Origin: a virus
Taxonomy: Duplodnaviria > Caudoviricetes
IMG/VR virus record: IMGVR_UViG_3300029288_000066
Coordinates: 32,001-96,000 of that record
DNA length: 64,000 nucleotides
Reading direction: 5' to 3' (one strand)
Below are positions 598 through 40,640 of this stretch, in pieces. Numbering within the stretch: the stretch's first letter is position 1; each line of letters starts with the position of its first letter. The position numbers and the translations under genes were made by a program. The notes beneath the pieces were generated by a model. That model ran no database searches, had not been told where the DNA came from, and saw nothing but the letters and a program-made list of their open reading frames with translations.

Positions 598-650
598 AAG
601 CATTGAATTTCTGTGTCCTTTTTTTTATATTTATTAAAATTCTCTATTTT

Positions 651-782
651 ATGCCAAAAAAAACAAAAAACCTTAGCGTTACAATATCATCTAATGTATA
701 TAAAAAATTAGAAGATGGGAAATATAACAAAAGCAAGCTAATAGTTAGCTTATTAGAAAAATATTTACAAAAAAACAAATAA
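651..782 (+). CDS. Small RHH-like protein A (cassette 1), 43 aa
   Basis: MPKKTKNLSVTISSNVYKKLEDGKYNKSKLIVSLLEKYLQKNK; paralogues at 22887, 33044 and 39152; TATTTATT at 628. Confidence 0.75.
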   Translation: MPKKTKNLSVTISSNVYKKLEDGKYNKSKLIVSLLEKYLQKNK

Positions 783-800
783 ATTTACGTCCACACGCCT

Positions 801-839
801 GTTTTTATTTTTTTCTACTATTTATAATAAACAATTAAA
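801..839 (+). promoter_or_regulatory. Conserved cassette box containing late-type promoter TATTTATA
   Basis: GTTTTTATTTTTTTCTACTATTTATAATAAACAATTAAA; near-identical copies at 23043, 32851 (minus strand) and 39361. Confidence 0.75.
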
Positions 840-850
840 TATTATAAATC

Positions 851-1009
851 ATGGGAAGAAAAAAAATTGCACCTGAAGTCCAGGCAAAAACCGTTAAAGT
901 TCACATTCCAATTGAACTTTATAAAAAATTAGAAGAAAAAAATATTACAAACAAATCCAAGCTGATTAATTGGTTATTGGAACAGCATTTTAATATGATA
1001 GAAAAATAA
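851..1009 (+). CDS. Small RHH-like protein B (cassette 1), 52 aa
   Basis: MGRKKIAPEVQAKTVKVHIPIELYKKLEEKNITNKSKLINWLLEQHFNMIEK; three paralogues; stop codon 2 nt before the nuclease ATG. Confidence 0.8.
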   Translation: MGRKKIAPEVQAKTVKVHIPIELYKKLEEKNITNKSKLINWLLEQHFNMIEK

Positions 1010-1011
1010 AT

Positions 1012-1677
1012 ATGAAAATAGCAGAAGAAAAAAAAGTGGATAAAAAATCTTTAAAAAAAGCTTATGATAAAGCTCGATATAATGCGAATAAAGAATTTTA
1101 TAAAGAATATAGAAAATCTCATAAAAAAGAAATAAAAAAATATTCTGATAGCCACAAAGAACAATTAAAAGAATATAATAAAAAATATCACAAAGCCAAC
1201 AAAAATGAAATAAATCAGCGAAAACGAGCACATCATTTAACACACAAAAAAAACAAAAGTGAGTATGACAAAATTTATCGAAAAAACAATCTTTCTAAAA
1301 TTAATAGGCGCAGCAGGAAGTGGTTTAATGCTAAGTATAAAACAAATGAGTTGTTTAAATTAAAGTGTAATATTAGAAATTTGATTATATCTTCAATTAA
1401 CAATAAGTATGGAAAAAAGACTAAAAGAACAGAACAAATTCTTGGATGTTCTTTCTCTGAGTTTAAGTTGCATTTGGAGTCTAAATTCGAACATTGGATG
1501 TCCTGGGAAAATCACGGCAAATATAACGGAGAATTTAATTTTGGATGGGACATTGACCACATCGTACCTATTTCCACGGCTAAAACCCTAGACGATGTAT
1601 TGATACTTAGTCATTATACCAATTTTCAACCATTAGATAGTAAAATTAATAGATTTATCAAAAAAAATAATGTATAA
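1012..1677 (+). CDS. HNH-type homing endonuclease
   Basis: Lys/Tyr-rich N-terminus; TEQILGCS..F..HLES.F..WMSWEN.G....WDIDHIVP...HYTNFQPL; paralogues at 36254 and 52374. Confidence 0.75.
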   Translation: MKIAEEKKVDKKSLKKAYDKARYNANKEFYKEYRKSHKKEIKKYSDSHKEQLKEYNKKYHKANKNEINQRKRAHHLTHKKNKSEYDKIYRKNNLSKINRRSRKWFNAKYKTNELFKLKCNIRNLIISSINNKYGKKTKRTEQILGCSFSEFKLHLESKFEHWMSWENHGKYNGEFNFGWDIDHIVPISTAKTLDDVLILSHYTNFQPLDSKINRFIKKNNV

Positions 1678-1684
1678 TTAATTG

Positions 1685-2407
1685 TTAGGACATTGGCAAA
1701 TCAAATGTCTCAATAATTGTTCCAGTAAATATATCTCCCCAAATTGGAATTGCCTTCTTTATAATTGGTACCACAACATTCATCATATCACTATAACTTA
1801 TACCAAGGCATCCTTCGCTCCATGGAAGTCTTCCAGGGGCATTAACACTCAAAGGTTCTGCCATTATATGCCAATTGGTACCATATATTTTGTTATCTTG
1901 TTCATTAACTTCATCAACAACATTATCTTTAGTATTGTCACGCCAATAATTAATTCCCCTTACTTGTTGAAAATAAGGGTATCCCCACGGCAATTTTCCG
2001 CTCCCATTGCCCATGGTAAATTTCCAAGAGCTACGGTATTGGTCGGCTTTAATGACTGCTTCTCCTCCAGGAAGAGGATTTAGTGCACCCCCTTGCCCAT
2101 ACAAGCTTGCTTTTGTTGTAGCTTTTAACGAAATTAATTGCTCGGCTCCATTCTCATCACGATAAGCAATGTAAAGAAAATCAGTGAACATATTTGTAAA
2201 GATGTTTGATGTTCTTTCCCAAACAAAATTGAGATTGTACGACCCAGAATCGAAAAAAATAAAATTATTTTTTTCCACTATTGTTTTTAATGTTTGATAA
2301 TCCATAACTATATTAGGTTTAATTGGTTCTACTACTTCTGCTTTTTTGGGAGTTACGTTAATTTTTTTTGCATCTTCTGCCGCCTTGTCTAATGTTTTTT
2401 CGTCCAT
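1685..2407 (-). CDS. Putative YkuD/L,D-transpeptidase-like cell-wall enzyme
   Basis: GTNWH...WSEGC (His...SxGC) motif; likely start MDEKT after TATTTATT at 2427-2434. Confidence 0.45.
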   Translation of the reverse strand: MDEKTLDKAAEDAKKINVTPKKAEVVEPIKPNIVMDYQTLKTIVEKNNFIFFDSGSYNLNFVWERTSNIFTNMFTDFLYIAYRDENGAEQLISLKATTKASLYGQGGALNPLPGGEAVIKADQYRSSWKFTMGNGSGKLPWGYPYFQQVRGINYWRDNTKDNVVDEVNEQDNKIYGTNWHIMAEPLSVNAPGRLPWSEGCLGISYSDMMNVVVPIIKKAIPIWGDIFTGTIIETFDLPMS

Positions 2408-2463
2408 TTTTCTTAATATTTGTATCAATAAATAGGACATAAAAATATTTTTTATAATTCAAA

Positions 2464-2990
2464 ATGCTTGATGAAAGGAAAGGTAAAACTTTTGAGGAAA
2501 TTTATGGAGAGGAAAAGGCCAAGAAATTAAAGAAACTGGGGAGTTTTCGGGCTTCTGGCGAGAAAAACCCAATGTATGGTAAAAAAATGTCAGAAGAAAC
2601 TAAATTAAAAATTTCTAATGCAAACTCTGGTGAAAAAACGAAAATTACGGAAAAATTGTCAAAAGAACATCTTCAAAAATTAATTGATTTTAATACAAAT
2701 AGAGTTGTGTCAAAAGAAACTAGACAAAAACTGAGAGATATAGCCCAAAATAGAAAATTTTCAAAAGAGACAAAATGTCAATCAATTCTTCAAAGGAAAG
2801 TAATGGTGATTTTAAAGGTGTAGTATATCAGTATGATAAAAAATGTAACTTAATAAAAACGTGGAAAGCACTTTACGAAATTGAAGGCGTATATGGCAAA
2901 AAATATTGCAATATATGCAGTTGTATAAATGGAAAAATAAAAAGTGCTTATGGATATGTTTGGACAAGAAACAAAATGAGCCAAGTGTAA
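2464..2990 (+). pseudogene. NUMOD3/NUMOD1 DNA-binding module of a homing endonuclease; frameshifted, no nuclease domain seen
   Basis: GEKNPMYGKKMSEETKLKIS and SKETRQKL repeats, then VYQYDKKCNLIKTW...KSAYGYVW in the next frame; break at an A-run near 2772. Confidence 0.6.
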
Positions 2991-3012
2991 TTGACTCATT
3001 TTAATATGTTTA

Positions 3013-3780: not shown

Positions 3781-3790
3781 GATTTTTATT

Positions 3791-4111
3791 TTAATTTGTT
3801 TCTAAAGTTTTAATTCTTTTAACCACTAATCCCCATGTATCTTCCAGTCCGCATGCACCATACATGTCAAACCACTGAAAAAGACCATAACAATAATATC
3901 CTTTTTCAAATGGCATTAGGGCTTCCACCACTGGAATAAGAGCGCTCCAAGATTCGTGGAATTTAAATGTTGTATCTAATTCAATTGCGCCTTTTAATCT
4001 CCACACTCTTCCTTTATCGGGGAAAGAGTTATCAATCTTCCATCCCATAAATTTTGCTATGGCAACATTTCCTAATACAATATTGGGTTCTTCATATTCA
4101 ATTTCTTCCAT
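3791..4111 (-). CDS. Hypothetical protein
   Basis: ORF in tightly packed minus-strand operon; N..IAKFMGW...FHESWSALIPVVE. Confidence 0.6.
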   Translation of the reverse strand: MEEIEYEEPNIVLGNVAIAKFMGWKIDNSFPDKGRVWRLKGAIELDTTFKFHESWSALIPVVEALMPFEKGYYCYGLFQWFDMYGACGLEDTWGLVVKRIKTLETN

Positions 4112-4114
4112 GGC

Positions 4115-13283: not shown

Positions 13284-14102
13284 TTATTTAAACTTCCAAA
13301 CAAATCCTTTATAAATTCCTTTGTTTTTTTTAATGGCTTGACTAATTAAACAAGAATTTCCCTTTTTTATCTTCTTATCAAAAACAAAAGAAACAGATTT
13401 GGCAGCTTCTTTTAAACTGTTAAATTCATCAATGAAATTGTTCGACAAATCGAATTTAACAATTTTTTTGCCGCCCAATTTATATCCAGGTGCACCCTTA
13501 TTCCAAGGAACATTTCCTTTTTTGAAGTTTGATGGGTTTTGAACAAATCTCATTTTACTTGCATTATCTACTATTCTCTTCAACTCCTCTTCCCCAATTT
13601 TTGAATATTCTTGTTCGTATAGCCAAATGAAACCACCACAAGTTTTTGTTTTTTTTGACAAAACACTATCAATCCCACGTTTCTTAATACACCTTTCGGC
13701 ATCTAATGTAGATTCAAACGTTTTTACATATAATCCATCCTTATTCAAACAAACAACTTTTTTTCCATTATCTCCCTTTTTAAATGATGTTTGATTTCCG
13801 AAAGTACAGCCGTCTCCGCCTAATGTATAATTTATTAAATTAAACCCCCAAGACTTCATTTGACATATCCAATATGTCTCCCAAAAAACCCACTCATTGA
13901 TTGGGACTATATCTACCACTTCTATAATTGGCTTTAGGCCAATTCTTTTTAAAGATTCTATCCAGTTTCTTTTGTGAATTTGGTGCTTCCTAGCACGATT
14001 TAAGTGAGCACCATATCTTTGCTTTACATTATTGGCTTTCCCAACATATCTCACCTCTTTGGTTACTGGGTCAATAAGAATATAAATGTTTGTTGTTTTC
14101 AT
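13284..14102 (-). CDS. GIY-YIG homing endonuclease with NUMOD1 repeats
   Basis: NIYILIDP..VRYVGKA..R..H; ETYWI; LINYTLGGDG; GFIW/GFVW repeats; TATTTATA at 14117. Confidence 0.85.
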   Translation of the reverse strand: MKTTNIYILIDPVTKEVRYVGKANNVKQRYGAHLNRARKHQIHKRNWIESLKRIGLKPIIEVVDIVPINEWVFWETYWICQMKSWGFNLINYTLGGDGCTFGNQTSFKKGDNGKKVVCLNKDGLYVKTFESTLDAERCIKKRGIDSVLSKKTKTCGGFIWLYEQEYSKIGEEELKRIVDNASKMRFVQNPSNFKKGNVPWNKGAPGYKLGGKKIVKFDLSNNFIDEFNSLKEAAKSVSFVFDKKIKKGNSCLISQAIKKNKGIYKGFVWKFK

Positions 14103-22886: not shown

Positions 22887-23027
22887 ATGGCAAAAAAAGA
22901 AACAAAGAAAATATCAATAGCGATTACCCCAGAAGTAGAAGAAAAATTAAGCAAAGGAAGTTTTAATTGCAATAAGCTTGTAAATCAACTTCTTAGGGAA
23001 TTTCTAAACAAAAACAACAAAAAATAA
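22887..23027 (+). CDS. Small RHH-like protein A (cassette 2), 46 aa
   Basis: MAKKETKKISIAITPEVEEKLSKGSFNCNKLVNQLLREFL; TATTTATG at 22865. Confidence 0.75.
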   Translation: MAKKETKKISIAITPEVEEKLSKGSFNCNKLVNQLLREFLNKNNKK

Positions 23028-23042
23028 TTATGGATTTCCATA

Positions 23043-23080
23043 ATTTTACTTTTTTCTACTATTTATAATAAACAATTAGA
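23043..23080 (+). promoter_or_regulatory. Conserved cassette box (copy 2)
   Basis: 29 nt identical to copy 1 (TTTTTTCTACTATTTATAATAAACAATTA). Confidence 0.75.
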
Positions 23081-23156
23081 GTTTTCCTTCTTTTTTAAAA
23101 GATTGCTTTATATAGTTTTGTAAAGTTAGAGAAAAACGAACCAAATTATAAACCAC

Positions 23157-23333
23157 ATGGGAAGGAAAAAAATTAAACCAGAAAATAAGAAGAAAATCCT
23201 TACAATTAATATTGAATCTGATTCATATGAAAGATTCGAAAGACTAGGTATTAAAAATAAATCTAAATTCTTTAATTGGCTCTTGGAACAGCATTTTAAC
23301 GAATTAAAGTGCGAAGGGAATAGCTATGTCTAA
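23157..23333 (+). CDS. Small RHH-like protein B (cassette 2), 58 aa
   Basis: MGRKKIKPENKKKILTINIESDSYERFERLGIKNKSKFFNWLLEQHFNE...; overlaps the nuclease ATG by 8 nt. Confidence 0.8.
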   Translation: MGRKKIKPENKKKILTINIESDSYERFERLGIKNKSKFFNWLLEQHFNELKCEGNSYV

Positions 23334-24327
23334 GAAACTAACAACAGAAGAGTTTGTTCAAAAGGCAAGAGCTGTGCATGGAAACAAATACGATTATTCA
23401 AATATCGTGTATATTAATGCCGTTACAAAAATAAAAATTAAATGTTTTATGCACGGAAATTTTAAACAATTGCCTTATGTTCATTTAAAAGGAAGCGGAT
23501 GCACTAAATGCGAAAATGATAAGAAAAAATCAACAACAAATGAATTTATAAAGAAAGCAAAAAATACTCATGGCGACAAATATGATTATTCACAGGTAAA
23601 CTATAAAAGCGCACATGCAAAAGTTAAAATAATTTGCCCTAAACATGGAGAATTTGAACAGGTCGCCAATTTGCACATTCGTGGCCATGAATGCATGCAG
23701 TGTTCTGTTAAAAAAAGGTCAACTTTAAGAGCAAAAGACTTAAAAAACTTTATTCGTGATGCAAAGAAAATTCATAGCGATAAATATGATTATTCAATTT
23801 CTATCTATAAAAACAGTGCAACCAAATTAAAGATACTATGCAAAAAACATGGTGTTTTCGAACAACGACCAGCAGACCATTTAAAAGGATGTGGCTGCCC
23901 AAAGTGTAAATCATCAAAAGGAGAAATAAAAATATTTAACATTTTTGTAAAAAACAATATTAATTTTAAATCAGAACATCACTTAAAAAATTGTAATTAC
24001 AAAAAAAAATTGTTTTTCGATTTTTATGCCATTGACACTAAGTGCTGCCTTGAAATCAACGGAATACAACACTTTAAACCAGTTGAATTCTTTGGTGGCA
24101 CGAAAGTTTTTGAAGATAATCTAAAAAGAGATTCAATAAAAGAAAATTTTTGTTTGAGACATAAACTCCCATTAATTATCTTTTGGGAAACAGGAGAAAA
24201 AACAAATAAGTGGAATTTTGTAGATTTGTTCGAAAATTGCCCATCAAAAATAAAATTTCTGTTGTTAAAAGAAAGATTTGTAGAAAAAACAAATAGTGAG
24301 TACAAAGATTTTAAATCATCTTTTTAA
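23326..24327 (+). CDS. Homing-type endonuclease: HG.KYDYS zinc-finger repeats (DUF723-like) plus PD-(D/E)XK/Vsr-like domain
   Basis: Three HGDKYDYS...IIC.KHG.F.Q...H..G.GC..C repeats; SKGE; FDFY...LEINGIQHF. Confidence 0.8.
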   Translation: MSKKLTTEEFVQKARAVHGNKYDYSNIVYINAVTKIKIKCFMHGNFKQLPYVHLKGSGCTKCENDKKKSTTNEFIKKAKNTHGDKYDYSQVNYKSAHAKVKIICPKHGEFEQVANLHIRGHECMQCSVKKRSTLRAKDLKNFIRDAKKIHSDKYDYSISIYKNSATKLKILCKKHGVFEQRPADHLKGCGCPKCKSSKGEIKIFNIFVKNNINFKSEHHLKNCNYKKKLFFDFYAIDTKCCLEINGIQHFKPVEFFGGTKVFEDNLKRDSIKENFCLRHKLPLIIFWETGEKTNKWNFVDLFENCPSKIKFLLLKERFVEKTNSEYKDFKSSF

Positions 24328-25536
24328 TTATTTCTACAATCTTTTCTATCATTTCTTTCTTGTCAGAAATCGGTTTAAATTTTTCATCTATTGATTTTAA
24401 TCTGCTTCCAATATATTCAAATCCTTCGAATCCATTTTCACGTCCCATAATCATTGTAAATCCTGGAATTGTTTGTCCCTTCGCAAACCACTCTCCAGCC
24501 TCAAATCTACTTGTTCTTGCGAAACTTCTTCCAGGAATTTTCTCTGTTTCTTTGGCAAACCAAAAAACTACACACCCATGCTTGCTTGATTTATTTAAAT
24601 ATTTCGTTTCCCAATCTACTTGCTGCTCATAAATAAAATCTTTTGGTTTTTCTAATCTTCTTGGAGAACAAATGACAATGTTCCTGTTCGTTTTTATATC
24701 TTTTAACTCTTTCTTTATTTTTTCTATAAATTCTTCTTGCCAATTTTCGCAACCAGAAGCAGGCCCTGCAAGAAATAAAAATATACTTTCATTTAATTCT
24801 GAGTCAACAAATTCATACTCTTCTGGAGCTCTCAAAACTACAATTTCTCCTTTTCTATTTGCTACGTTTGCAATCGCTTCTCCAATGAACACATTAGCAT
24901 CATAGAATTTTTTTATTGCGTTATGCAAGAACAATATTTTCTCTTCGCTTAAAGGAATAAAATTATTTGCATCTGCCGAAATATTTATAATATTCCTTTG
25001 AACCAAAAAAAGTTTGTGAATGTGCCCGCATATATTGAACACGTTTGTTTTTGCATTAGTTGGAAAATGGTTAATGTAAAAAATTTTTCCATCTATTTTT
25101 ACTTCTAATTCATCGACAATCTTTTCGAAATACCTTGATAATATTTTATCATTTATTTCATATTTTGCTGTGCCTTTGCCGCTCTCATCATTTATGTTTA
25201 TATCATAATTGCCCTTCACAAGCCATTTTTCTCCATTACACTCGTTTAACATTGATAATCCGTCTAAAGTCATAGAAACATCTCCAGCCACTATGACTAA
25301 ATCTTGCTTCCCCACTGTTTTGTTCCACATTTTCACAATATATTCATTAACTTCTTTTGAGTTTTTGAATAATTCTTCACGAAAATACAAATTTAATCTT
25401 TCATCATCAAAATGCAAATCTGATATAAAAAACCTTTTTCTTTTTTTCTTTTTTTCTTTTCTGATTCTTCAATAATCATTTTCTCACGAATTTGACTTTT
25501 TACAATTTCTACAATTTGTTCTACTTTTTGTTCCAT
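24311..25536 (-). CDS. Metallophosphoesterase fused to nucleoside 2-deoxyribosyltransferase-like domain; frameshift in A-rich tract 25441-25460
   Basis: FISDLHF, AGDV, KGNYD, CGHIH; C-domain IFLAGP...WQ...QVDWE...TSRFEAGEW; only upstream ATGs (25536, 25479) are one base out of frame. Confidence 0.75.
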
Positions 25537-29931: not shown

Positions 29932-31596
29932 ATGAACTCAAAAAAAGAATTAAAAGAATTTTTGCTTAAAATATTAAGTGAGATTACCAACTCTGGTGGA
30001 GGAAGACCCCAAACGGCTCCTACTGTTGAACCTGATATAAAAACAAAACCTTCTACATCTCCTCCTGCGCCAACTCAAGAGCCAAACAGAAGAAGAAAGT
30101 TAACCCCAGATAGATGGCCAGAAGAAACCCCAGGTCCTAAGCCTAAAGCCGAAGGAAAAGAAGTAAGCATAGAGGAAGTTATTAAAGAAATGAAAATAAT
30201 TGAAGAATTAACAAGAATGAAAACGTTAATTTCTGAAAACAGACAAATAGCACAAGAAATGGCAATGAACATAGAAGACCCCGAATATGAAACTCCAAAT
30301 CCATCAGTACGAACGGGGATAGAAGGCGGTAAAAAGACTGCATTCAGCGATTCTGAGTTTTTCAAGGGGGGAACACCAGATTATTCTACATTAGAAAAAA
30401 TAGGGAGCGAAGAGTTTAACCAAATAATAAAAGATGTTAAACCATTTGGAAAAATGAACATGCAAGAATTTATGCAAGCATTTCAATTAATGTCATCTAT
30501 AGAAATGCCAAACAAAGAAGCATTAGAAGCGCTTGCTATAAGAAAGATTAAAGAACAATTTGGACTTCCAGATGAAGTTTCCGATAAATTAGAAGCAAAA
30601 TTGGTAAGACAGGTTAATAAACCTGACGAAGATACCGATAATTTAGAACAAGAAGTTGAAAAGGATTTACAGTTTACCGATGAAGAAAAGGAAATTATAA
30701 GGCAGCATGTAGAGAAGAGGAAGCTTCAAAATGCGCTCATGATGGGAGCGGGGTTTCGAGCCCATTCTGCATTCAGGTCAATAAAAAACGATTTAGACGC
30801 TATTGACCCAAGGCTACATCCTTTGTATGAAAAAACAATGCCCAACGTTGCTTTATTTATGTGGCAATATCCGTTGGAAGATATGATGGGGGGGGTAACA
30901 ATGATGGGACTTTCTAAGCTCAAAAAAGACGAGAATAACAATGTTAAAGCAGAAGCCCAGGCAACTATATTTCCGATACTCCTACACGAAACAGCCAAGG
31001 CTGCAATAGAACTTCTTTTTGCATACTACTTAATTGACCTTACTGAAAAATATGGCAAAAATGTATCTTCAGAAATCATAAAACAATCTGATGTTTTTGA
31101 AGAAGAAATTTGGCATAAGAGAATAGGACCAAAACTCTGGAAATACCTACACGACGTAATTGATTATGTTATTGTTCACGATAAAGAAAGCAATTACACT
31201 TTGGTTTCTTATTTGTTACACGACATATCAATGATGGAGCCTGCTGAGTTTGTGAATTTTATGACTAATATTGTTTATAATGGTGAAAAATCAATAGAAA
31301 TTGTAAGTCAAATGGTTGATGTCATTGAACATGATTTAGAAAGGTCTGGAGAGGCCGACCAAACAGAAACAGAAACAAATGATGAAAATCTACTAAGAAC
31401 AGCGAATAGAGTTGGAGACACATTGGCAAAACTAACTCAATCGGCAAGCGAAAAGCAGCAATCACAAGAAAATGTCGCAAAGGATTTTGTGGGAATGAGT
31501 GTGGAAGAACTACAGATTGAATTGCAGGACGCTATTGATACGGAGCGCTATGAAGATGCGGCAAAAATAACAAAAATAATTAAAAGCAAAATTTAA
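29932..31596 (+). CDS. Late/virion-type protein with HE motif and C-terminal UVR domain
   Basis: Pro-rich linker; FPILLHETAK; ELQIELQDAIDTERYEDAAKI. Confidence 0.6.
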   Translation: MNSKKELKEFLLKILSEITNSGGGRPQTAPTVEPDIKTKPSTSPPAPTQEPNRRRKLTPDRWPEETPGPKPKAEGKEVSIEEVIKEMKIIEELTRMKTLISENRQIAQEMAMNIEDPEYETPNPSVRTGIEGGKKTAFSDSEFFKGGTPDYSTLEKIGSEEFNQIIKDVKPFGKMNMQEFMQAFQLMSSIEMPNKEALEALAIRKIKEQFGLPDEVSDKLEAKLVRQVNKPDEDTDNLEQEVEKDLQFTDEEKEIIRQHVEKRKLQNALMMGAGFRAHSAFRSIKNDLDAIDPRLHPLYEKTMPNVALFMWQYPLEDMMGGVTMMGLSKLKKDENNNVKAEAQATIFPILLHETAKAAIELLFAYYLIDLTEKYGKNVSSEIIKQSDVFEEEIWHKRIGPKLWKYLHDVIDYVIVHDKESNYTLVSYLLHDISMMEPAEFVNFMTNIVYNGEKSIEIVSQMVDVIEHDLERSGEADQTETETNDENLLRTANRVGDTLAKLTQSASEKQQSQENVAKDFVGMSVEELQIELQDAIDTERYEDAAKITKIIKSKI

Positions 31597-32672
31597 GCAA
31601 AAATTTTTCTAAATTCATCATAGTTTTTATCAATTATAAAAATAAAACTATATCCTTGACTTAAACATGTTCTTTGTTTTGTCAAGTTCTTGTCTAAATA
31701 TTTTTTGTACGTATAGGTTGATTTTATTTCAATTATTAAATTTTTACTTTCCAAGTAAAAATCAGAAAAGTAAATTCTTTTTTTACCTTCGAAAAAATAT
31801 TGTATCGTTTTACCGCCTTTTATCGGAACTTTATTGTCAAAACAAAAATCCAAAAAATGCTTTTCATATGTTCCACGGTAATATAATCCAGTTTTCTTGT
31901 GTGTTTTTCTTTTAAACCCACTCTTTTGTTGTTTTTCGTGTATTTCTTTGTTTTGTGTGGCGTGCTCTACTCCATATTTTTTTAAACAAACACTTTTTAT
32001 TTTTTTCAGTATATTCTTGCTTTGAAATACGTTTTCTACTCCATATTTTTCCATACAGGTTTTTTTCTTTTTATTCTTTACACTTTCATTTTGACTAGGA
32101 TTTTCAACACCAAAGTTTTTTAAACATGTTATTTTCTTCTTGTTTTTCACGTCCTCACTTTTATTTGGAGAATTAACCCCATATTTTTTTAAACTTGTTT
32201 TTTTTGATTTTTTTGCCACTTTTTTATTCTGCATTGGATTCTCTGCTCCATATTTTTCCATACAAGTTTTTTTCTTTTTAATCTTTACATCTTCGTTTTG
32301 ATTTGGGTTCTCAACGCCAAAGTTTTTCAGACATGTTTCCTTTACTTTGTTTTTTATTATTTCACTTTGACTTATATTGTTAACTCCATATAACCTTAAA
32401 TAAGTTTGTTCTTTTTTCCCCATAGAACATTTAGAGCTACAGCAATACCACCCCTGATTCTCAAAATTTATAGCATATACATAATAACGAAGACTTTTTT
32501 CTTTTCCGCAAATATCACATTTTGCACGAATAATCGCACTACTTTTTCTCTTTAAATGTTTCACGGGTACCAACATTTTTTTCCCAACAAACAAATTTTC
32601 GTATCCCAAATTTTTAAAATGCTTAAAATTAGAAGTGGCGACAATTATTTCAACCTCTTTAGTTAGTATCAT
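31593..32672 (-). CDS. Homing-type endonuclease: KYGVEN repeats plus PD-(D/E)XK domain (cassette 3)
   Basis: CDICG, TC..KYGV.NP.Q repeats; YRGTYE..F; YFSDFY...LIIEIKS.YT; paralogue of 39558. Confidence 0.8.
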   Translation of the reverse strand: MILTKEVEIIVATSNFKHFKNLGYENLFVGKKMLVPVKHLKRKSSAIIRAKCDICGKEKSLRYYVYAINFENQGWYCCSSKCSMGKKEQTYLRLYGVNNISQSEIIKNKVKETCLKNFGVENPNQNEDVKIKKKKTCMEKYGAENPMQNKKVAKKSKKTSLKKYGVNSPNKSEDVKNKKKITCLKNFGVENPSQNESVKNKKKKTCMEKYGVENVFQSKNILKKIKSVCLKKYGVEHATQNKEIHEKQQKSGFKRKTHKKTGLYYRGTYEKHFLDFCFDNKVPIKGGKTIQYFFEGKKRIYFSDFYLESKNLIIEIKSTYTYKKYLDKNLTKQRTCLSQGYSFIFIIDKNYDEFRKIFA

Positions 32673-32839
32673 AGAGATTCCTCCTTACTAAAAACATCAA
32701 GATGCTCTTTTAATAACCAATTAAAAAATTTGGATTTATTCTTCACGCCTAAATTTTCCAATCTCTTATATAGTTCTATTTCTATATTAAGAGTCAGATT
32801 CTTCTTTTTCTTTTCTGATTCAATTTTCTTGCGTCCCAT
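32669..32839 (-). CDS. Small RHH-like protein B (cassette 3), 56 aa
   Basis: MGRKKIESEKKKKNLTLNIEIELYKRLENLGVKNKSKFFNWLLKEHLDVFSKEESL; ATGA overlap with the nuclease. Confidence 0.8.
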   Translation of the reverse strand: MGRKKIESEKKKKNLTLNIEIELYKRLENLGVKNKSKFFNWLLKEHLDVFSKEESL

Positions 32840-32850: not shown

Positions 32851-32890
32851 TTTAATGTTTCTTATAAATATGCAGAAAAAAAGTAAAAAC
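32851..32890 (-). promoter_or_regulatory. Conserved cassette box (copy 3)
   Basis: GTTTTTACTTTTTTTCTGCATATTTATAAGAAACATTAAA on the minus strand. Confidence 0.7.
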
Positions 32891-32906
32891 AAGGATTTTC
32901 TCGTGT

Positions 32907-33044
32907 TTATTTTTCTTTTTTTTCTAAATATTTTTTAAGTAATTGATTTACAAGCTTATTGCTATTAAACCCTCCTTCATTTAATTTTTTATAAATTTCT
33001 GGGTCAATTACTATGGTGAGTTTTTTAGTTTCTTTTTTTGCCAT
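32907..33044 (-). CDS. Small RHH-like protein A (cassette 3), 45 aa
   Basis: MAKKETKKLTIVIDPEIYKKLNEGGFNSNKLVNQLLKKYLEKKEK; TATTTATA at 33060. Confidence 0.75.
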   Translation of the reverse strand: MAKKETKKLTIVIDPEIYKKLNEGGFNSNKLVNQLLKKYLEKKEK

Positions 33045-33137
33045 GATTTATAATTTTTATATAAATATAATACAATTTTTCTTTAATTTTCAAGTAGGAT
33101 TTTTCTTTTTTTATACGAAAATAATGCAGGGAAAAGT

Positions 33138-33449
33138 TTAAACAGAAGGAATAGTCACACTCACATTTACTGTAAACCAGACAGTACTTTTTGCCAATTT
33201 TATTAAAGTATCTGCATCTCTGTACATAGTGTCATATATATCACAACGATATTCTTTACCTGTCTTTAAATCTTTTAATATAGCATTAATTCTGTCATCA
33301 CACAAAGTTAACGTGTGCGCTTTAAATTTTATATCACTTCTTAATTTATAAAAACAATCCAGCGCTATTCTACGACTCCTTTCTGGAGATAGGGGTCTCT
33401 TCATTCGAATTACTCGGCCATACTTATCATCTATTGTAATTGTTTTCAT
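33138..33449 (-). CDS. Hypothetical protein (tandem paralogue 1)
   Basis: FYKLRSDIKF...LTLCDD.IN.ILKDLKTGKEY shared with 33459-33692. Confidence 0.65.
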   Translation of the reverse strand: MKTITIDDKYGRVIRMKRPLSPERSRRIALDCFYKLRSDIKFKAHTLTLCDDRINAILKDLKTGKEYRCDIYDTMYRDADTLIKLAKSTVWFTVNVSVTIPSV

Positions 33450-33458: not shown

Positions 33459-33692
33459 TTAAAAATCAAAAAAACTACCATCAAATTTACATGTCGTCCT
33501 TTTTATAAAATCTTCTGCACTTGTAAATGGGGTGTTGTATATACTTGATTGATATTCTTTCCCAGTTTTTAAATCCTTTAAAACAATATTAACTTTGTCA
33601 TCACACAATGTCAATTGATAATGCGTAAACTTGATGTCGCTTCTTAAATTATAAAAAGAATCAAGATAATTTATTTTATTTCTCTTTTTCAT
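33459..33692 (-). CDS. Hypothetical protein (tandem paralogue 2)
   Basis: FYNLRSDIKF...LTLCDDKVNIVLKDLKTGKEY. Confidence 0.65.
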   Translation of the reverse strand: MKKRNKINYLDSFYNLRSDIKFTHYQLTLCDDKVNIVLKDLKTGKEYQSSIYNTPFTSAEDFIKRTTCKFDGSFFDF

Positions 33693-33907
33693 TTACACTG
33701 TCTATTCCTTCTTTAACCGTTAGCCTAACAAGAGCTTCCCAATTCCAAATCCAATCATAATTTACATTTCCAGCAACTCCAATATAATACCATCCATCCC
33801 TTACAGTCCTTTCCATTTGATATCCTTTAAACTTTAATTCAGTTTTTAAATTCATTAATTGGAGCGCTGTTCTACTACAATTATGACTATAATAATAATA
33901 TTTCTTT

Positions 33908-36157
33908 TTACGCATCATATTGTTTCATTTGCAACAATTCAATCAATGATGTTTGTCTCTTCGTTTGTCTTATGTTCTTTACAGCCCTGGAGAGCGAGCC
34001 TCTCTGCCCAACAAAAACACAAAGTTTTTTCGCTCTTGTAAGTCCAGTGTAAATCAGATTGCGATATAGCATATTGTAATGCTGATTCATTAGCGGAATT
34101 ATGATGGCATCAAATTCGCTTCCTTGACTTTTGTGAATTGTTATGCAATATGCAAGTTTTAACTCAAGCAATTGGTCTCTTTTGTATAAGACACTTCTGT
34201 TTTCAGTTCCAAATTCAATTAAACATTCCTTTTCTGGAGGATTGACCATAGTAATTTTTCCGATATCCCCATTGAAAACACCCAAATCATAATTGTTGAC
34301 GATTTGAATAACCCTATCTCCTTGTCTTAAAATCCTATTTTTAAGCTTAATTTCGAACTTTCCTGGTGCGGGTGGATTAACGGCATCTTGTAAAATTTCG
34401 TTGATTTTAATCGCTCCTACGTCCCCCACATTCATCGGGCATAAAATTTGTACTTCTATATCTTTCCCGTAATATTTATTTACGGTTTCCATATAAAGCT
34501 TTTTAATCATTCCAATGGCATCAATTCCATAATACAAAGTTGACCAATCTGGATAATCAGTATAATCTTTATAAGGGTCTCCAAGTTCGGAGTCCACAAA
34601 GAGACAATCCGTTTTTTGGTTCCACAAATCTGGGTCAATTAGCGGGCTATAAATTTCTGGTTCTATTCCGCTGTTAATGCCATGAGCAAATCTAATAATA
34701 TCTGAACCTTCTCCTTGTCTAAATATTTTATTTAAAACATAAGTTTTTACAAATCCGCTATTAATTAAATCTTTAAAAAACGCCCCTGGTCCTACTGGTG
34801 GCAGCTGGTCAACATCACCAATAAAAAGAATTTGACAATCTTGGGGAATAGCTCTCAATAGAGATGCTGCCAAATGTATATCCACCATGGATGTTTCGTC
34901 GACAATTATAAATTCACTATTAAGTTGAGTTTTTTCATTATGCTTAAAGCATCCTCTCACGTGGTCCCATCCCAATAGTCTGTGGATAGTCTGTGCTTGA
35001 ACGCCTATGACTTCTGTCATTCTTTGTGCTGCTCGGCCTGTTGGTGCTGCGAGTAAATAAGTAAAATTTAATACATCTAAAAGATTAATTAAATATTTGA
35101 GCTCAGTTGTCTTTCCACACCCAGGACCACCTGTAAGAACAGAGACTCCGTTGGAAACTATTTCTTTGATACTTATTAATTGCTCTTCACTTAACTGCAC
35201 TTCCTCTTCCTTTAGAGACTCTTCCCATTTGCTTATTAAAGATTCATCGGCTGGCCTTCCTGCAGTTTTCAATATATCAATCTTCTGTGCACAAAATCTT
35301 TCATCGTAAAACACCTGAACAGAATAATACCGTTTCTCTTCGGATATTGTTGATAGTTTTATTGTGTTGTCATCAACCAACTCGTCTAAAATAGCGTCAA
35401 TTTTTTCTTGAATTCTTACTTCGAGAATTTCTGTGGATTTCTTTAATATCTGATGATGCAGCAAATAGCAATGTCCATCATTTTCACCCTCAGTTAATAT
35501 ATAAATAATTCCAGCGGCAATTCTTTCTTTGCAATCTCTGGCAAACCCCATATCAAGAGCAATGTTATCCGCATATTTGAATCCTATTCCCCGAATGTCA
35601 TTTGCCATTCTATAAGGATTCTGACGAATTTGATTAATACAATCTCTTCCGTATGTTTCATATATTTTTGTTGCAAATAAAGTGCTTATGTTATAGCTCT
35701 GAAGAAAAACCATTATCTCATTAATCTCAGAATTTTGTATCCAGGAATTTTTTATTGTCTCCAACTTCTTCCTGGAAACGCCTGGCACCTCAACCAACTT
35801 ATCAATTTCGTTTTTTAAAACATTAAGCGTGTTTTCTCCAAAGTGCTGGACTATTTTTTTTGCTATTATTGGTCCTATTCCTTTAAAGAAAGTTGAGGAA
35901 AGATATTTTACCATTGCCTCTCTGGTTTCTGGTGCAATCTCAATAGCCTTGTCCGCTTTAAATTGATTTCCGTATCTTGGATTTGAAACCCACTGCCCAT
36001 GGAACTCCATGGTTAATCCTTCGTGGATTTTTAGCTGGTTCGTTGTTACTGTACACTCTTTTCCTTTGTCCTTAAGCAAAACACTCAGCACATGGTAGCC
36101 ATTTTCTTGATTAGAGTATATAATACGCTCTACACTTCCAATTATCTTTTCATCCAT
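33908..36157 (-). CDS. recD2: RecD2-type SF1B helicase
   Basis: HhH N-region, GGPGCGKTT, APTGRAA, VDETSM, GDVDQLP, TIHKSQGSE, YTGLTRAK. Confidence 0.95.
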   Translation of the reverse strand: MDEKIIGSVERIIYSNQENGYHVLSVLLKDKGKECTVTTNQLKIHEGLTMEFHGQWVSNPRYGNQFKADKAIEIAPETREAMVKYLSSTFFKGIGPIIAKKIVQHFGENTLNVLKNEIDKLVEVPGVSRKKLETIKNSWIQNSEINEIMVFLQSYNISTLFATKIYETYGRDCINQIRQNPYRMANDIRGIGFKYADNIALDMGFARDCKERIAAGIIYILTEGENDGHCYLLHHQILKKSTEILEVRIQEKIDAILDELVDDNTIKLSTISEEKRYYSVQVFYDERFCAQKIDILKTAGRPADESLISKWEESLKEEEVQLSEEQLISIKEIVSNGVSVLTGGPGCGKTTELKYLINLLDVLNFTYLLAAPTGRAAQRMTEVIGVQAQTIHRLLGWDHVRGCFKHNEKTQLNSEFIIVDETSMVDIHLAASLLRAIPQDCQILFIGDVDQLPPVGPGAFFKDLINSGFVKTYVLNKIFRQGEGSDIIRFAHGINSGIEPEIYSPLIDPDLWNQKTDCLFVDSELGDPYKDYTDYPDWSTLYYGIDAIGMIKKLYMETVNKYYGKDIEVQILCPMNVGDVGAIKINEILQDAVNPPAPGKFEIKLKNRILRQGDRVIQIVNNYDLGVFNGDIGKITMVNPPEKECLIEFGTENRSVLYKRDQLLELKLAYCITIHKSQGSEFDAIIIPLMNQHYNMLYRNLIYTGLTRAKKLCVFVGQRGSLSRAVKNIRQTKRQTSLIELLQMKQYDA

Positions 36158-36253: not shown

Positions 36254-36880
36254 ATGAAAACAGCGGAACAAAGAAAAGAGTATAGAAAGAATTATTATAA
36301 TTTTAACAAGGAAAAAATGTTAAAAAGTCAAAAAGAATATTATAATAAAAATAGTGAAAAGTTAAAAAAATCATCAAAAGAATACAGAGACAACAACAAA
36401 GAAAAAGTGTTAAAAAACAAAAAAGAATATTGTGCTTCTAATTCTGAAAAAATAAAAAAAAACAAACGAAGATATTATATTAAGAATAAAAAAGAAATTA
36501 TAGAAAAAAATAGAATTCGTGCCATAAAAAAAAGAAAAGAAGACCCATTGTATAAATTAAAGGGAAATGTAAAATGTTTGATTTATCAAAGTTTTAAAAG
36601 AAACAAATACATTAAAAAAAACAGAACAGAACAAATTTTGGGATGTTCCATAGGACAATTTAGGATGTATTTAGAAAGCAAATTTGAATCATGGATGACG
36701 TGGGAAAATTATGGATTATATAATGGACAATTAAACTTTGGATGGGATATTGACCATATAACCCCACTCTCAAAAGCAAAAACTGAAGATGATGTTATAG
36801 AACTTAATCACTATACGAATCTACAACCACTTTGTAGTAAAATTAACAGAAATGTTAAAAAAGACAATTGTATTTTTTAA
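36254..36880 (+). CDS. HNH-type homing endonuclease (no RHH pair)
   Basis: TEQILGCS, WMTWENYG, WDIDHITP, HYTNLQPLC; own TATTTATA at 36226; antisense to neighbours. Confidence 0.75.
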   Translation: MKTAEQRKEYRKNYYNFNKEKMLKSQKEYYNKNSEKLKKSSKEYRDNNKEKVLKNKKEYCASNSEKIKKNKRRYYIKNKKEIIEKNRIRAIKKRKEDPLYKLKGNVKCLIYQSFKRNKYIKKNRTEQILGCSIGQFRMYLESKFESWMTWENYGLYNGQLNFGWDIDHITPLSKAKTEDDVIELNHYTNLQPLCSKINRNVKKDNCIF

Positions 36881-38485: not shown

Positions 38486-39043
38486 TTATTCTCCTATTTT
38501 TATGATTTTAATAATATCAGTAATTTTTTCTATTCTGTTTTTTATCGTAATTTCTTGGTTCCAGTCCCTGTTCATTAAAAAAAAGTTCTCTCCTGGGTTA
38601 CCATTAGAAATCCAATTGTCGTAATTGTGTGGGGCATCATCAATTAAATAATCCAATCCCAAACTTCCCTTGTCTTTCGTAATAAAAAGCTCATCAAACA
38701 CTAAATTGTATTTTCCGAGCCAAAGATATGTCATTGCAACCAAGTGTGGCTCCTGTGTCGTCGCACACACTAATTTCATACCATTTCGGTTAGTCCAATC
38801 CTTTAAAATTTTAAACTGAGCTACCGTTCCAGGATAAGGCTTGGTTTTAAAAAAAATGTCTTCTGGGTATTCGTTAAAGATAATGTGAAACTTATCCTTT
38901 AAAGGCATTTTGATGTGGGGGAAATCGTAATTATATGCGATGTCACTAACGATATGTTCAGGATAGTGAGTCTTAAATACCTTATTAACTCCTGACATTA
39001 AATCTCTAAGCACACCGTCTACGTCCAAACCAATTTTCTGCAT
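38486..39043 (-). CDS. HAD 5'(3')-deoxyribonucleotidase-like protein
   Basis: IGLDVDGVL; LIDDAPHN; WNQ. Confidence 0.8.
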   Translation of the reverse strand: MQKIGLDVDGVLRDLMSGVNKVFKTHYPEHIVSDIAYNYDFPHIKMPLKDKFHIIFNEYPEDIFFKTKPYPGTVAQFKILKDWTNRNGMKLVCATTQEPHLVAMTYLWLGKYNLVFDELFITKDKGSLGLDYLIDDAPHNYDNWISNGNPGENFFLMNRDWNQEITIKNRIEKITDIIKIIKIGE

Positions 39044-39062
39044 TTTATAAGTAATTTTGAGT

Positions 39063-39088
39063 TTATACGTAAAATTGTAGTTTTTGTT
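39063..39088 (-). promoter_or_regulatory. ECF-type promoter GAAAC-N16-CGTATAA
   Basis: Exact spacing. Confidence 0.7.
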
Positions 39089-39151
39089 TCATTATACTAC
39101 AAATATTTTGATTTATTAAACTTATTTTCTATATTTATTAAAAAACAGAAT

Positions 39152-39292
39152 ATGAAAAGCAATAAAGAATATAAGGCAATTTCTTTAAGTATAGACAAAG
39201 ATTTAAGAGATAAAATGGATGAAGCGCACATTAATAAAAGCCGCCTCATAAATGATTTAATCAAGAAACAGATTAAAAAGAAAAAAAAATAA
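39152..39292 (+). CDS. Small RHH-like protein A (cassette 4), 46 aa
   Basis: MKSNKEYKAISLSIDKDLRDKMDEAHINKSRLINDLIKKQI; TATTTATT at 39132. Confidence 0.75.
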   Translation: MKSNKEYKAISLSIDKDLRDKMDEAHINKSRLINDLIKKQIKKKKK

Positions 39293-39360
39293 ATAAAATT
39301 ATTCTTCCTCATTTACAACAAATTATAAAATATTTTTATTTTTATTAACACTATTATAGT

Positions 39361-39397
39361 GTTTTTACTTTTTTGTACTATTTATAATAAAATTAAA
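39361..39397 (+). promoter_or_regulatory. Conserved cassette box (copy 4)
   Basis: GTTTTTACTTTTTTGTACTATTTATAATAAAATTAAA. Confidence 0.75.
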
Positions 39398-39400
39398 GTT

Positions 39401-39553
39401 ATGGGAAGAAATAAAAAAGAAAACAAGAAGGTTAAAGTGTCAATCACTTTAGAAAAAGAATGCATTGAATTCATAGAAGAAAAAAGCATTAAAAGTAAAT
39501 CTGATTTTGTTAATTGGCTTATTCGTGAACATTTTAATAACTTAAACAAATAA
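39401..39553 (+). CDS. Small RHH-like protein B (cassette 4), 50 aa
   Basis: MGRNKKENKKVKVSITLEKECIEFIEEKSIKSKSDFVNWLIREHFNNLNK. Confidence 0.8.
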   Translation: MGRNKKENKKVKVSITLEKECIEFIEEKSIKSKSDFVNWLIREHFNNLNK

Positions 39554-39557
39554 TATC

Positions 39558-40640
39558 ATGATATTAAGCACTGAAGTTGAGGTCACCATTAATACCAGCA
39601 ATTTTAAACATTACAAAGAGGCTGGGTATAAAAACATAAGGGTTAAACAAAAAATAGTTGTTCCAATAAATAAAGTTTACCACAATGGATATAATCTAAT
39701 TGAGGTTAAGTGCGATGTTTGCGGGCACATTAAAACCATAAAAATAAATAGATATTTTATTAATTTAGGCAAATGGAATATCTATGCCTGCTCTCCCAAA
39801 TGTGGTACAATCAAAACCAAAATGACTAGCATGGAAATTTATGGAGAAACATCTGCTCAAAAAAACAAAATTGTCAAAGAAAAAAAAGAAAGAACTAACA
39901 TCGAAAGATATGGTGGGACTTCTCCGAGTTGTTCAGATGTGGTTAAAAAGAAGATAAAGTGTACAAACTTAAAAAGATATGGCGTAGATAATGTCATGAA
40001 AAACAATGAATTTAAAAATAAGCAGAACAATTCTTTAATGGTAAATTATGGAGTAAAAACCCCCATACAAAATGCACATATAAGAAAAAAAATAGAAAGG
40101 ACGAACATAGAAAGATACGGTTCAAAGTCTCCTTTAGAATCAAGTGAAATAAAAGAGAAAATAAAAAAACACAATCTTAATGTTCATGGGGTTGACTATC
40201 CGTTTCAATCAAAATCCTTTAGGGACAACGCAGAAGAAGAAACCTTGTTAAGATATGGAACAAAATATGTAGCACAAATAGAAAGATTCTTTCTAAAACA
40301 ACAAAAAAATTCGTTTAATTTAAAACTACATAAGAAAACAAGACTTTTTTATAGAGGAACGTATGAAAAAGATTTTTTAGATTTTTGTTATAATAATAAA
40401 ATATATATAACAAAGGGAAAGGTTATCAAATACCATTTTCAAAATAAAACAAAAACATATTTTTCTGATTTTTACATGGAAAATATAAATTTGATAATAG
40501 AAATAAAATCAAATTATACATACAAAAGAGATTTGAAGAAAAATCTATCCAAACAAAAAGCGTGTATTAAACAAAATTATAAGTTTATTTTTATAATTGA
40601 TAAAAATTACAAAGATTTTTTAGATGCTATTAAACTATAA
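39558..40640 (+). CDS. Homing-type endonuclease: RYG repeats plus PD-(D/E)XK domain (cassette 4)
   Basis: CDVCG; TN.ERYG repeats; YRGTYEKDF; YFSDFY...LIIEIKSNYT. Confidence 0.8.
   Translation: MILSTEVEVTINTSNFKHYKEAGYKNIRVKQKIVVPINKVYHNGYNLIEVKCDVCGHIKTIKINRYFINLGKWNIYACSPKCGTIKTKMTSMEIYGETSAQKNKIVKEKKERTNIERYGGTSPSCSDVVKKKIKCTNLKRYGVDNVMKNNEFKNKQNNSLMVNYGVKTPIQNAHIRKKIERTNIERYGSKSPLESSEIKEKIKKHNLNVHGVDYPFQSKSFRDNAEEETLLRYGTKYVAQIERFFLKQQKNSFNLKLHKKTRLFYRGTYEKDFLDFCYNNKIYITKGKVIKYHFQNKTKTYFSDFYMENINLIIEIKSNYTYKRDLKKNLSKQKACIKQNYKFIFIIDKNYKDFLDAIKL

Follow-up and report, generated by a model that had tools for sequence, protein, structure and literature searches.

What are the two very short genes that stand ahead of several nuclease genes in the genome of an uncultured jumbo phage, and what might they do for these nucleases? 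The DNA in question, here called the window, is the whole stretch of 64,000 nucleotides (nt) that was analysed, bases 32001-96000 of the 228,886-bp IMG/VR virus record IMGVR_UViG_3300029288_000066 (33% G+C, estimated to be 82% complete). A preliminary description of the window had proposed that it holds four copies of one cassette, and every open reading frame (ORF) named there is present where it was placed. The parts follow one another in the same order in all four copies: a TATTTAT motif, a small gene A, an intergenic box, a second small gene B whose product begins MGR(K/N)K, and a nuclease gene. We refer to the nuclease as the cargo and to the parts ahead of it as the head. We read the cassette as a free-standing homing nuclease on a portable regulatory head with two ribbon-helix-helix (RHH) genes, in which the operon would be turned down by B and a second layer of control would be provided by A. 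We give this reading a probability of roughly 0.6. The features of the four cassettes are listed below in window coordinates; P_A and P_B denote the predicted promoter motifs ahead of A and B, respectively.

626..634, plus strand: P_A motif of cassette 1 (T-run + TATATTTAT), promoter-like, 25 nt before the A1 start codon
651..782, plus strand: A1, predicted RHH microprotein of 43 amino acids (aa), weak CcdA match, paralog of B
800..838, plus strand: box of cassette 1, T-run + promoter-like core CTACTATTTATAATAAAC (P_B), predicted
851..1009, plus strand: B1, predicted 52-aa RHH microprotein of the MGRKK...NKSKLINWLL family
1012..1677, plus strand: cargo 1, HNH-type nuclease by sequence, 221 aa, beginning 2 nt past the B1 stop codon
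22863..22871, plus strand: predicted P_A motif of cassette 2
22887..23027, plus strand: A2, predicted 46-aa RHH microprotein, weak match to Arc-like phrog_582
23026..23079, plus strand: hairpin TTATGGAtttcCCATAA (-6.6 kcal/mol, z -3.3) + T-run, then the P_B core of cassette 2
23080..23156, plus strand: extra leader of ~70 nt between P_B and B2, common to cassettes 2 and 7
23157..23333, plus strand: B2, predicted 58-aa RHH microprotein
23326..24327, plus strand: cargo 2, DUF723/DUF4379 zinc-module array with a Vsr-like domain, 333 aa, overlapping B2 by 8 nt
31593..32672, minus strand: cargo 3, predicted DUF7487/TnsA-like PD-(D/E)XK homing nuclease, 359 aa, overlapping B3 by 4 nt
32669..32839, minus strand: B3, predicted 56-aa RHH microprotein
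32852..32892, minus strand: box of cassette 3 (T-run + P_B core), its core complementary to the B3 start region
32907..33044, minus strand: A3, predicted 45-aa RHH microprotein, match to Arc-like phrog_3180 (E 5e-4)
33061..33069, minus strand: predicted P_A motif of cassette 3
39130..39138, plus strand: predicted P_A motif of cassette 4
39152..39292, plus strand: A4, predicted 46-aa RHH microprotein, Pfam CcdA 26.6 bits (cutoff 22.4), phrog_3180
39347..39396, plus strand: hairpin CACTATtaTAGTG (z -2.9) + T-run, then the P_B core of cassette 4
39401..39553, plus strand: B4, predicted 50-aa RHH microprotein, weak RHH_1 match
39558..40640, plus strand: cargo 4, predicted DUF7487 PD-(D/E)XK homing nuclease, 360 aa, beginning 4 nt past the B4 stop codon

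The motif TATATTTAT lies 22-25 nt ahead of each A start codon in these four cassettes, and within the window the core of the box is confined to them. The junction between B and the nuclease is tight throughout (a gap of 2 nt, overlaps of 8 and 4 nt and a gap of 4 nt in cassettes 1-4). When the whole record was searched with B, three further cassettes (5-7) were found beyond the window, at genome positions 110493, 130399 and 206699, giving seven in the record; the cargos of these three are a zinc-ribbon HNH protein, an HNH protein resembling that of cassette 1, and a 397-aa TnpB. Across the seven cassettes the head measures ~450 bp, A has 43-51 aa and B has 50-58 aa with an arm, MGR(K)K, that does not vary. 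The genome has 14 A and B genes, every one of them in a nuclease cassette.

The copies of A and the copies of B align along their full length, with tblastn expectation values (E) among the cassettes of 1e-8 to 1e-19 for B against B, 1e-5 to 1e-16 for A against A and ~1e-4 for A against B. We regard A and B as paralogs because a comparison of the A profile with the B profile by hhalign gave a probability of 98.4% (E 8e-15). The proposal that both are RHH-like also held. A4 exceeds the Pfam cutoff for CcdA (26.6 vs 22.4 bits), A1 and A3 match CcdA or RHH_9 weakly, and A2-A4 match PHROG families named "Arc-like repressor". An 81-sequence profile of B compared to the PDB matched CopG best (1b01/2cpg, E 0.03) and then CcdA (E 0.07), with the strand and both helices covered. 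In the AlphaFold model of B (pLDDT, the per-residue confidence score, 78) residues 1-20 are extended and helices occupy residues 21-29 and 35-47, which is the RHH topology; the model is a monomer, and an RHH strand can form only in a dimer. Moreover, the nearest named ESM-Atlas clusters are all CcdA/CopG/RHH. We call B an RHH protein because of its kinship to A together with these concordant weak matches. On profile and model evidence, A and B are thus assigned as paralogous CopG/Arc/CcdA-like RHH microproteins, both of them predicted to be bare RHH domains (43-58 aa) with no added tail. That they are chance ORFs is ruled out by the strong conservation of the family and by the mostly synonymous differences between near-identical heads; they belong to the microproteins that ordinary annotation skips. 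One more B-like tblastn match in the window, a weak one (E 0.007) at ~57735 on the plus strand within a 285-aa ORF (57060-57917), may be noise or may mark an RHH-like part of a larger protein.

How widespread is B? Among 1.84 billion representatives, the profile of the seven B copies matched 161 clusters (50% identity) at E ≤1e-3 and 43 at E ≤1e-10, nearly all of them stand-alone proteins of 46-75 aa. All matches to B in a collection of 5.8 billion proteins are metagenomic and labelled "hypothetical", and a precomputed Pfam domain is attached to only two weak ones. Several members lie on contigs of 290-540 kb; the metagenome contigs with B homologs are mostly too short to show the gene context. 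A scan of prokaryote genomes (bacterial and archaeal, one per species) for B gave no match, and tblastn of B1, a second member of the B family and A3 gave none in 50,697 GenBank phage records, a weak negative with such short queries and 2.3 Gb of sequence. Judged by its sequence, B founds a family without prior annotation, whose members are confined to phage contigs from metagenomes. Two of its relatives read as fusions: P0060 (69 aa) joins the N-terminal part of A to both helices of B and is probably a recombinant of the two genes, and in P0142 (145 aa) a B-like RHH is fused to a GIY-YIG-like domain.

Two scans of IMG/VR yielded 62 loci, which represent 31 distinct sequences. Thirty of these are B-bearing cassettes, and the remaining one (L084) is a match to an A-like gene itself. 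A was found upstream of B in at least 28 of the IMG/VR heads and in 7 of 7 in this genome. In all 30 cassettes a long ORF begins close to the B stop codon, at most 29 nt ahead of it or 6 nt past it, and a recognisable nuclease is located there in 29 of the 30, as it is in all seven of the phage's own cassettes. Altogether, some 38 distinct cassettes have their nuclease start at the B stop codon or a few bases from it. Classed by Pfam, PHROG and homology, the IMG/VR cargos are:

12 loci: zinc-ribbon HNH/EndoVII-like
9 loci: DUF723/DUF4379 + Vsr-like (includes L009, L027 and L029)
7 loci: GIY-YIG
1 locus: LAGLIDADG (L007)
1 locus: an unassigned 127-aa ORF, then a Vsr-type nuclease (L008)

Two further contexts add to these. 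In L089 the A-B head is followed by a 180-aa gene and then by GIY-YIG. On a 540-kb groundwater contig (L092:2667-4307) the head precedes a 547-aa protein without a Pfam or PHROG match, in which reading of the sequence reveals the TnpB/RuvC-like motifs AIDTNP, VLESL, PQYTS and DPINASIEIGRRG and no obvious zinc finger; this protein may be a divergent RNA-guided nuclease. The head can therefore serve as a search handle, and the 547-aa (L092), 127-aa (L008) and 180-aa (L089) genes are candidate new nucleases or accessory factors.

The three cargo architectures named in the preliminary description for the window (HNH, DUF723-like repeats with a Vsr-like domain, and PD-(D/E)XK twice) agree with Pfam, PHROG, model and motif evidence. 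Cargo 1 carries the motif DIDH...N...N, is homologous to cargos of the phrog_1035 HNH/EndoVII type and has a paralog at 36254-36877 with a weak PF01844 match. Cargo 2 consists of DUF4379/DUF723 modules (phrog_559, phrog_9084), and the model of its C-terminal domain resembles Vsr (1cw0/1vsr, probability 0.99) and the catalytic domain of I-Bth0305I (3r3p, probability 0.97), at E values of only 0.01-0.1. Cargos 3 and 4 match DUF7487, with a weak TnsA-like match. By sequence, then, the cargos belong to homing-nuclease families (DUF7487/TnsA-like, DUF723 + Vsr-like, HNH/EndoVII-like, GIY-YIG and LAGLIDADG).

The window also contains three homing-nuclease genes that lack a head: GIY-YIG/NUMOD1 at 13284-14102 (minus strand), HNH at 36254-36880 (plus strand) and HNH at 52374-53153 (minus strand), the two HNH genes being paralogs of cargo 1. 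Each of the three stands behind a T-run + TATATTTAT (14126 minus, 36224 plus and 53537 minus). The start of the HNH gene at 52374-53153 is overlapped by 19 nt by a 116-aa ORF (53135-53485, minus strand) with an RHH-like N-terminus (weak RHH_1, Arc-like PHROG), a third and different RHH-plus-nuclease pairing.

Does the head behave as a unit of its own? Pairwise DNA comparison and a tree of B agree with the earlier view of a modular unit, as a discrete head is joined to interchangeable nucleases. Similarity in DNA begins 25-60 nt upstream of the A start codon and ends at about residue 47 of B, just past WLLEQHF; the tail of B varies with the cargo because it overlaps the cargo start. Between cassette 2 and locus L022 the identity of B is 83% and the hairpin that follows A (TTATGGAtttcCCATAA) is the same, yet the former has a Vsr-like cargo and the latter a GIY-YIG cargo. 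Cassettes 1, 5 and 7 have their heads in common and carry HNH, zinc-ribbon HNH and TnpB. Cassettes 2 and 7 have P_B, the ~70-nt leader and B in common and not A, and therefore exchange has taken place within the head too. The heads of L079 and L081 are ~94-96% identical over ~450 bp with mostly synonymous differences, yet their flanks are unrelated and their cargos differ (Vsr-like vs HNH). Likewise, the heads of L086 and L087 (85%) and of L064 and L062 (88%) are joined to different nucleases (HNH vs GIY-YIG were seen) within unrelated flanks. On the B tree, which is poorly resolved with its 47 columns, the cargo type changes 16 times, against a minimum of 6 and a mean of 18.3 after shuffling, and a number as low was reached in 20 of 200 shuffles; since 16 is close to the shuffled mean, the cargo is nearly random relative to the head. 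The head is one recombination unit, and at least six unrelated nuclease families, TnpB among them, have been attached to it.

The TnpB cassette deserves separate attention. In cassette 7 the B7 stop codon lies 7 nt ahead of the 397-aa TnpB (PF07282, PF01385), which by reading of its sequence retains the RuvC D/E/D and zinc-finger motifs. A 291-kb phage (G006) encodes a TnpB that is 92% identical in protein and has a Y1 tnpA upstream; this phage lacks the tested backbone genes of ours and is not a backbone relative. DNA homology between the two runs from 4 nt before the tnpB start codon to 43 nt past the stop codon and ends just past a strong right-end hairpin, which shows a compensatory change from G-C to A-U. 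Because the homology starts only 4 nt before tnpB, we conclude that the head has replaced tnpA and the left end. A complete insertion sequence (IS), with left end, right end and Y1 transposase, is not present in cassette 7. Thus, cassette 7 appears to be a TnpB without its transposase that has been installed as ordinary homing cargo.

Are the cassettes mobile? The preliminary description predicted mobility and empty sites in relatives, and an empty site in L005 and reciprocal extra cassettes bear this out. In L005, the homologs of 29932-31596 (75% identity) and 33138-33449 are only 28 nt apart, with a terminator hairpin between them, where the window has the 1541-nt cassette 3. Conversely, the homologs of 33676-33918 and 33908-36157, genes that overlap in the window, are separated by a Vsr-type cassette in L005. 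In L022, a GIY-YIG cassette lies between the homologs of 54651-55352 and 55747-56226, and in L032 an HNH cassette lies between the homologs of 42449-43969 and 41585-42391; the window has none at either place. L006 carries an orthologous cassette 2 adjoining the homolog of 24311-25417. A search for an empty site of cassette 2 with its 368-aa flank gave no relatives, and for cassette 4 a clean empty site was not found, L033 having two unrelated small genes there. Backbone relatives have 0-4 matches each to the B profile; as this profile picks up A copies too, they range from no cassette to a few. Whole cassettes are present in some phages and absent from related ones.

The cassettes also have a preferred orientation. 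The phage genome is strongly biased, with 228 of 283 ORFs of ≥80 aa on the minus strand, and cassettes 2 and 4 are plus-strand islands among minus-strand genes, as had been noted. All seven cassettes of the genome are convergent with the downstream gene; six lie on the minority strand and the seventh is beside plus-strand genes. In IMG/VR, 23 of 27 cassettes are convergent with their downstream neighbour and 22 of 28 are divergent from the upstream one. Taken together, 30 of 34 are antisense to the downstream neighbour (two-sided coin p ~3e-6, with loci that are not all independent). The 3' end of cargo 3 overlaps the convergent gene 29932-31596, and cargo 4 abuts the convergent ABC-ATPase gene 40642-41583. 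As the nuclease stop codons abut or overlap the stop codon of the neighbour, there is no room for a terminator.

We then consider the box between A and B. The preliminary description took it for a dedicated operator, a view that we abandon: the box consists of a terminator-like hairpin and T-run followed by a general promoter motif of the phage. "T-run + TATTTA(T/C)" occurs 51 times in the genome, and 18 of these occurrences have a gene of ≥80 aa 10-60 nt downstream on their own strand, where 1.6 would be expected; most of the others precede A and B. Because of this enrichment upstream of genes, the motif, including P_A and P_B, is probably the phage's own promoter type. Downstream of the core, AAAC(A)ATTA is conserved specifically in the cassettes. 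The first half of the box is the T-run; ahead of it, directly behind the A stop codon, comes a short hairpin whose sequence varies. This hairpin reaches significance in cassettes 2 and 4 (z ~-3), is weaker in 3 and 5 and falls short of significance in 1, 6 and 7; across loci its stems differ in sequence yet persist, with G.U pairs. Hairpin and T-run after A look like a weak intrinsic terminator. The folding test gave no significant fold for the leader of cassettes 2 and 7 (window 23080-23156; genome 206895-206977). The leader opens with a small GAG..CTC hairpin and a T-run.

Many heads have a promoter core whose complement is found at the B start codon and in the bases that immediately precede it. 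The match is perfect over 10 nt in cassette 1, where the core ATTTATAATA and the sequence TATTATAAAT immediately ahead of the B1 start codon form an inverted repeat (-9.5 kcal/mol, z -3.2), and in cassette 3 the duplex has 9 bp including one G.U (-13.1 kcal/mol, z -5.3). RNAalifold on the region from P_B to the start codon in 32 heads gave no consensus structure, the arms being out of register; a duplex test on each sequence was used in its place. The mean duplex energy was -7.4 kcal/mol in 33 heads versus -4.9 kcal/mol in 24 other promoters of the class (Mann-Whitney p 8e-4), and the mean shuffle z was -1.4 versus -0.5 (p 0.03). This complementarity could be an operator dyad, or it could be a T4-like hairpin that blocks translation of read-through RNA. 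At genome positions 139267, 192069, 116814 and 114057, genes behind the same promoter type also display strong core/start complementarity (z -2 to -4), and the N-termini of some suggest homing nucleases; the nuclease genes of this phage may thus have a T4-style start-site hairpin in common. Paralogous genes with the N-terminus M..K.IRKLIRE(V/S)(L/I) lie directly behind T-run + TATTTAT at genome positions 25085, 114057, 135457, 159067, 190628, 198668 and 221598.

A Shine-Dalgarno-like 4-mer precedes only 35 of the 283 long ORFs of the whole genome and none of the A or B genes. Such scarce use fits a host that rarely employs these sequences, e.g. one of the Bacteroidota.

How would such a head work? 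In our reading, B and the nuclease would be made from one message that starts at P_B, and translation of the nuclease would be tied to that of B, since the nuclease starts within the B tail or a few bases after it. B, as an RHH dimer with a basic arm, would bind at or near P_B and switch the operon off after a short pulse, in the manner of Arc with ant in P22 and with tnpB/tnpA in IS605. A, from its own short transcript, would supply a second and independent layer of repression, like Mnt in phage P22. As the seven P_B regions are near-identical, control by A and B may extend in trans to every cassette. Lying antisense, the nuclease gene would be beyond the reach of read-through from phage operons, so that the RHH-controlled promoter would be the only valve, and under repression less antisense transcription would run into the neighbouring gene.

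Several observations weigh against this reading. That A and B repress the nuclease operon is inferred by analogy with known RHH circuits, and the need for two RHH genes instead of one likewise comes from analogy. B by itself stays below the curated RHH cutoffs, with sub-threshold scores, and Foldseek with the monomeric B model gave no meaningful match. The box is explained largely by the general promoter and the T-run, and no operator could be defined in it: a search for a palindromic operator within the box found nothing beyond the AT-rich expectation, and no convincing co-variation was found between residues of the A or B β-strand and bases of the box or promoter. The hairpin after A is weak or absent in three of the seven own cassettes, and the core/start complementarity is absent from several heads (cassettes 4 and 7, L007, L008 and L092).

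A more far-reaching version seems possible and rather doubtful to us: the head itself would be the selfish unit that evolves, a horizontally moving platform that captures nuclease genes of any kind, from HNH to RNA-guided TnpB (whose transposase it displaces), and renders them tolerable for a phage genome, and A and B, as a two-layer or heterodimeric switch, would act in trans on all heads and so confer a guild-wide immunity.

Could A and B instead form an obligate heterodimer, a single RHH repressor that reads one asymmetric operator and shuts the operon off once both promoters have fired? The two genes are nearly always paired (in at least 28 of 31 IMG/VR heads and 7 of 7 here) and are inherited as a unit. 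Prediction of the A+B complex, a dimer that the preliminary description had thought possible, gave it weak support (ipSAE 0.34 vs 0.00 for the best control, with a partner pLDDT of at least 67 and runs that agree in at least 90% of contacts), at a level where, in the calibration, scores of ≤0.60 recovered only 7 of 80 solved complexes, plus both mismatched pairs that passed. The modelling does not discriminate between the readings, as A+B was the only pair modelled and any two RHH paralogs would model as a dimer by their likeness to solved homodimers. Furthermore, separate transcription units for A and B are ill suited to stoichiometric pairing, cassettes 2 and 7 have P_B and B in common but not A, so that the pair is not strictly co-inherited, and heads with a single RHH gene exist (L030 and L031). 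We therefore consider an obligate heterodimer unlikely.

Slightly less likely still is that the head is mainly a platform for recombination and expression, with A and B as architectural or accessory factors for recombination or homing, in the way that TraY and NikA act at oriT. Heads are much more alike than cargos or flanks and have sharp homology borders, there is mosaicism within the head and a natural A/B recombinant fusion (P0060), and in an IS605 a head now stands where tnpA and the left end had been. The near-identical heads, however, differ mostly synonymously, which means that selection acts on the proteins themselves; a specific accessory role is unlikely to suit six unrelated nuclease chemistries; and where RHH proteins beside mobile nucleases have been tested, they proved to be repressors.

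We regard it as improbable that A and B are genome-wide regulators of the T-run + TATTTAT promoters, a timing device carried beside nucleases by chance. The core of P_A and P_B is common to at least 18 other promoters, and a protein reading this core would act genome-wide. Yet all 14 A and B genes are in nuclease cassettes, and relatives with the same backbone have none or few, so that they are not essential timing factors. Finally, an antitoxin-like role, in which A and B neutralise the nuclease protein directly as in type II toxin-antitoxin pairs, is rejected as very improbable: the best Pfam match and the nearest Atlas clusters are indeed CcdA, an RHH antitoxin, and a small RHH gene followed by an overlapping gene for a toxic enzyme recalls toxin-antitoxin operons, but A and B (43-58 aa) are an RHH domain only, without a toxin-binding extension, one type of head serves six unrelated nuclease folds with no common surface (HNH, Vsr-like, PD-(D/E)XK, GIY-YIG, LAGLIDADG and TnpB), and the variable B tail merely follows the overlapping start of the cargo.

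If the reading of a nuclease under a two-RHH repressor head is true, a portable two-gene head that fits every nuclease chemistry would be a general answer to the control of these genes for many uncultured jumbo phages. How does it compare to known systems? The C proteins of restriction-modification systems are helix-turn-helix proteins that chiefly activate and repress one promoter and move together with a methyltransferase. They resemble A and B in being small DNA-binding proteins co-transcribed upstream of a dangerous endonuclease gene, whose expression they time and set in level on entry to a new cell; they differ in fold, as A and B are predicted to be RHH proteins, and no methylase is present here.

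In phage P22, Arc is encoded by the first gene of the ant operon that it represses, which yields a self-limiting pulse, and Mnt is made from its own promoter. This region, immI (mnt-arc-ant), is the classic two-RHH circuit (PMC8022706). As in our cassettes, immI has two paralogous RHH genes, there for repressors, and one potentially harmful gene, and it is a variable island inside a late operon. In contrast, mnt is divergent whereas A is co-directional, the P22 cargo is an antirepressor, and immI is not a multi-copy cassette with exchangeable cargo.

In T4, I-TevI represses its own promoter, and hairpins that sequester start sites control homing nucleases (Edgell et al. 2010, PMC2988022). The control of free-standing homing endonucleases outside T4 is listed there as an open area. 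T4 homing nuclease genes, free-standing or carried in introns, are kept low by an operator that overlaps their own promoter and by a promoter-containing RNA hairpin that silences read-through, and many of the heads described here have a comparable complementarity of promoter core and start codon. Unlike in T4, where the nuclease itself is the repressor and the genes are mostly co-oriented, the cassettes have separate RHH genes and form antisense islands.

Another near precedent is the Arc/IS605 system. The preliminary description knew of no equivalent of the cassette, a statement that no longer stands, since Arc RHH proteins repress IS605/TnpB promoters and have been noted beside homing endonucleases (10.64898/2026.09.24.754181; PMC10690162). 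An Arc-like RHH protein was shown to bind and repress an IS605-family promoter, and Arc homologs were observed beside homing endonucleases (Moon, Zedaveinyte, Wiegand and Sternberg, bioRxiv, October 2026, 10.64898/2026.09.24.754181); the association of Arc with IS605 was first noted in PMC10690162. A search of the literature found no paper that describes a small RHH regulator beside phage homing endonucleases as cassettes of this kind. Both systems place a tiny RHH gene beside a mobile nuclease, and heads here sit on tnpB itself (cassette 7, in which the RHH gene B7 adjoins tnpB) and on the TnpB-like gene of L092; the comparison is one of gene arrangement. In contrast to Arc/IS605, here two paralogous RHH genes stand in tandem, are co-directional with the nuclease, each have their own putative promoter, and B appears translationally coupled to the cargo. 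Moreover, the hosts of the cassettes are uncultured jumbo phages, the cargo is mostly a classical homing endonuclease, and the head of cassette 7 replaces tnpA and the left end instead of residing inside a complete IS. New here are the tandem head with two RHH genes and two promoters, its sharp borders, its promiscuous cargo including a TnpB without transposase, the antisense bias and the B family. In this way the head connects the Arc control of TnpB transposons, described only recently, with the classical homing endonucleases.

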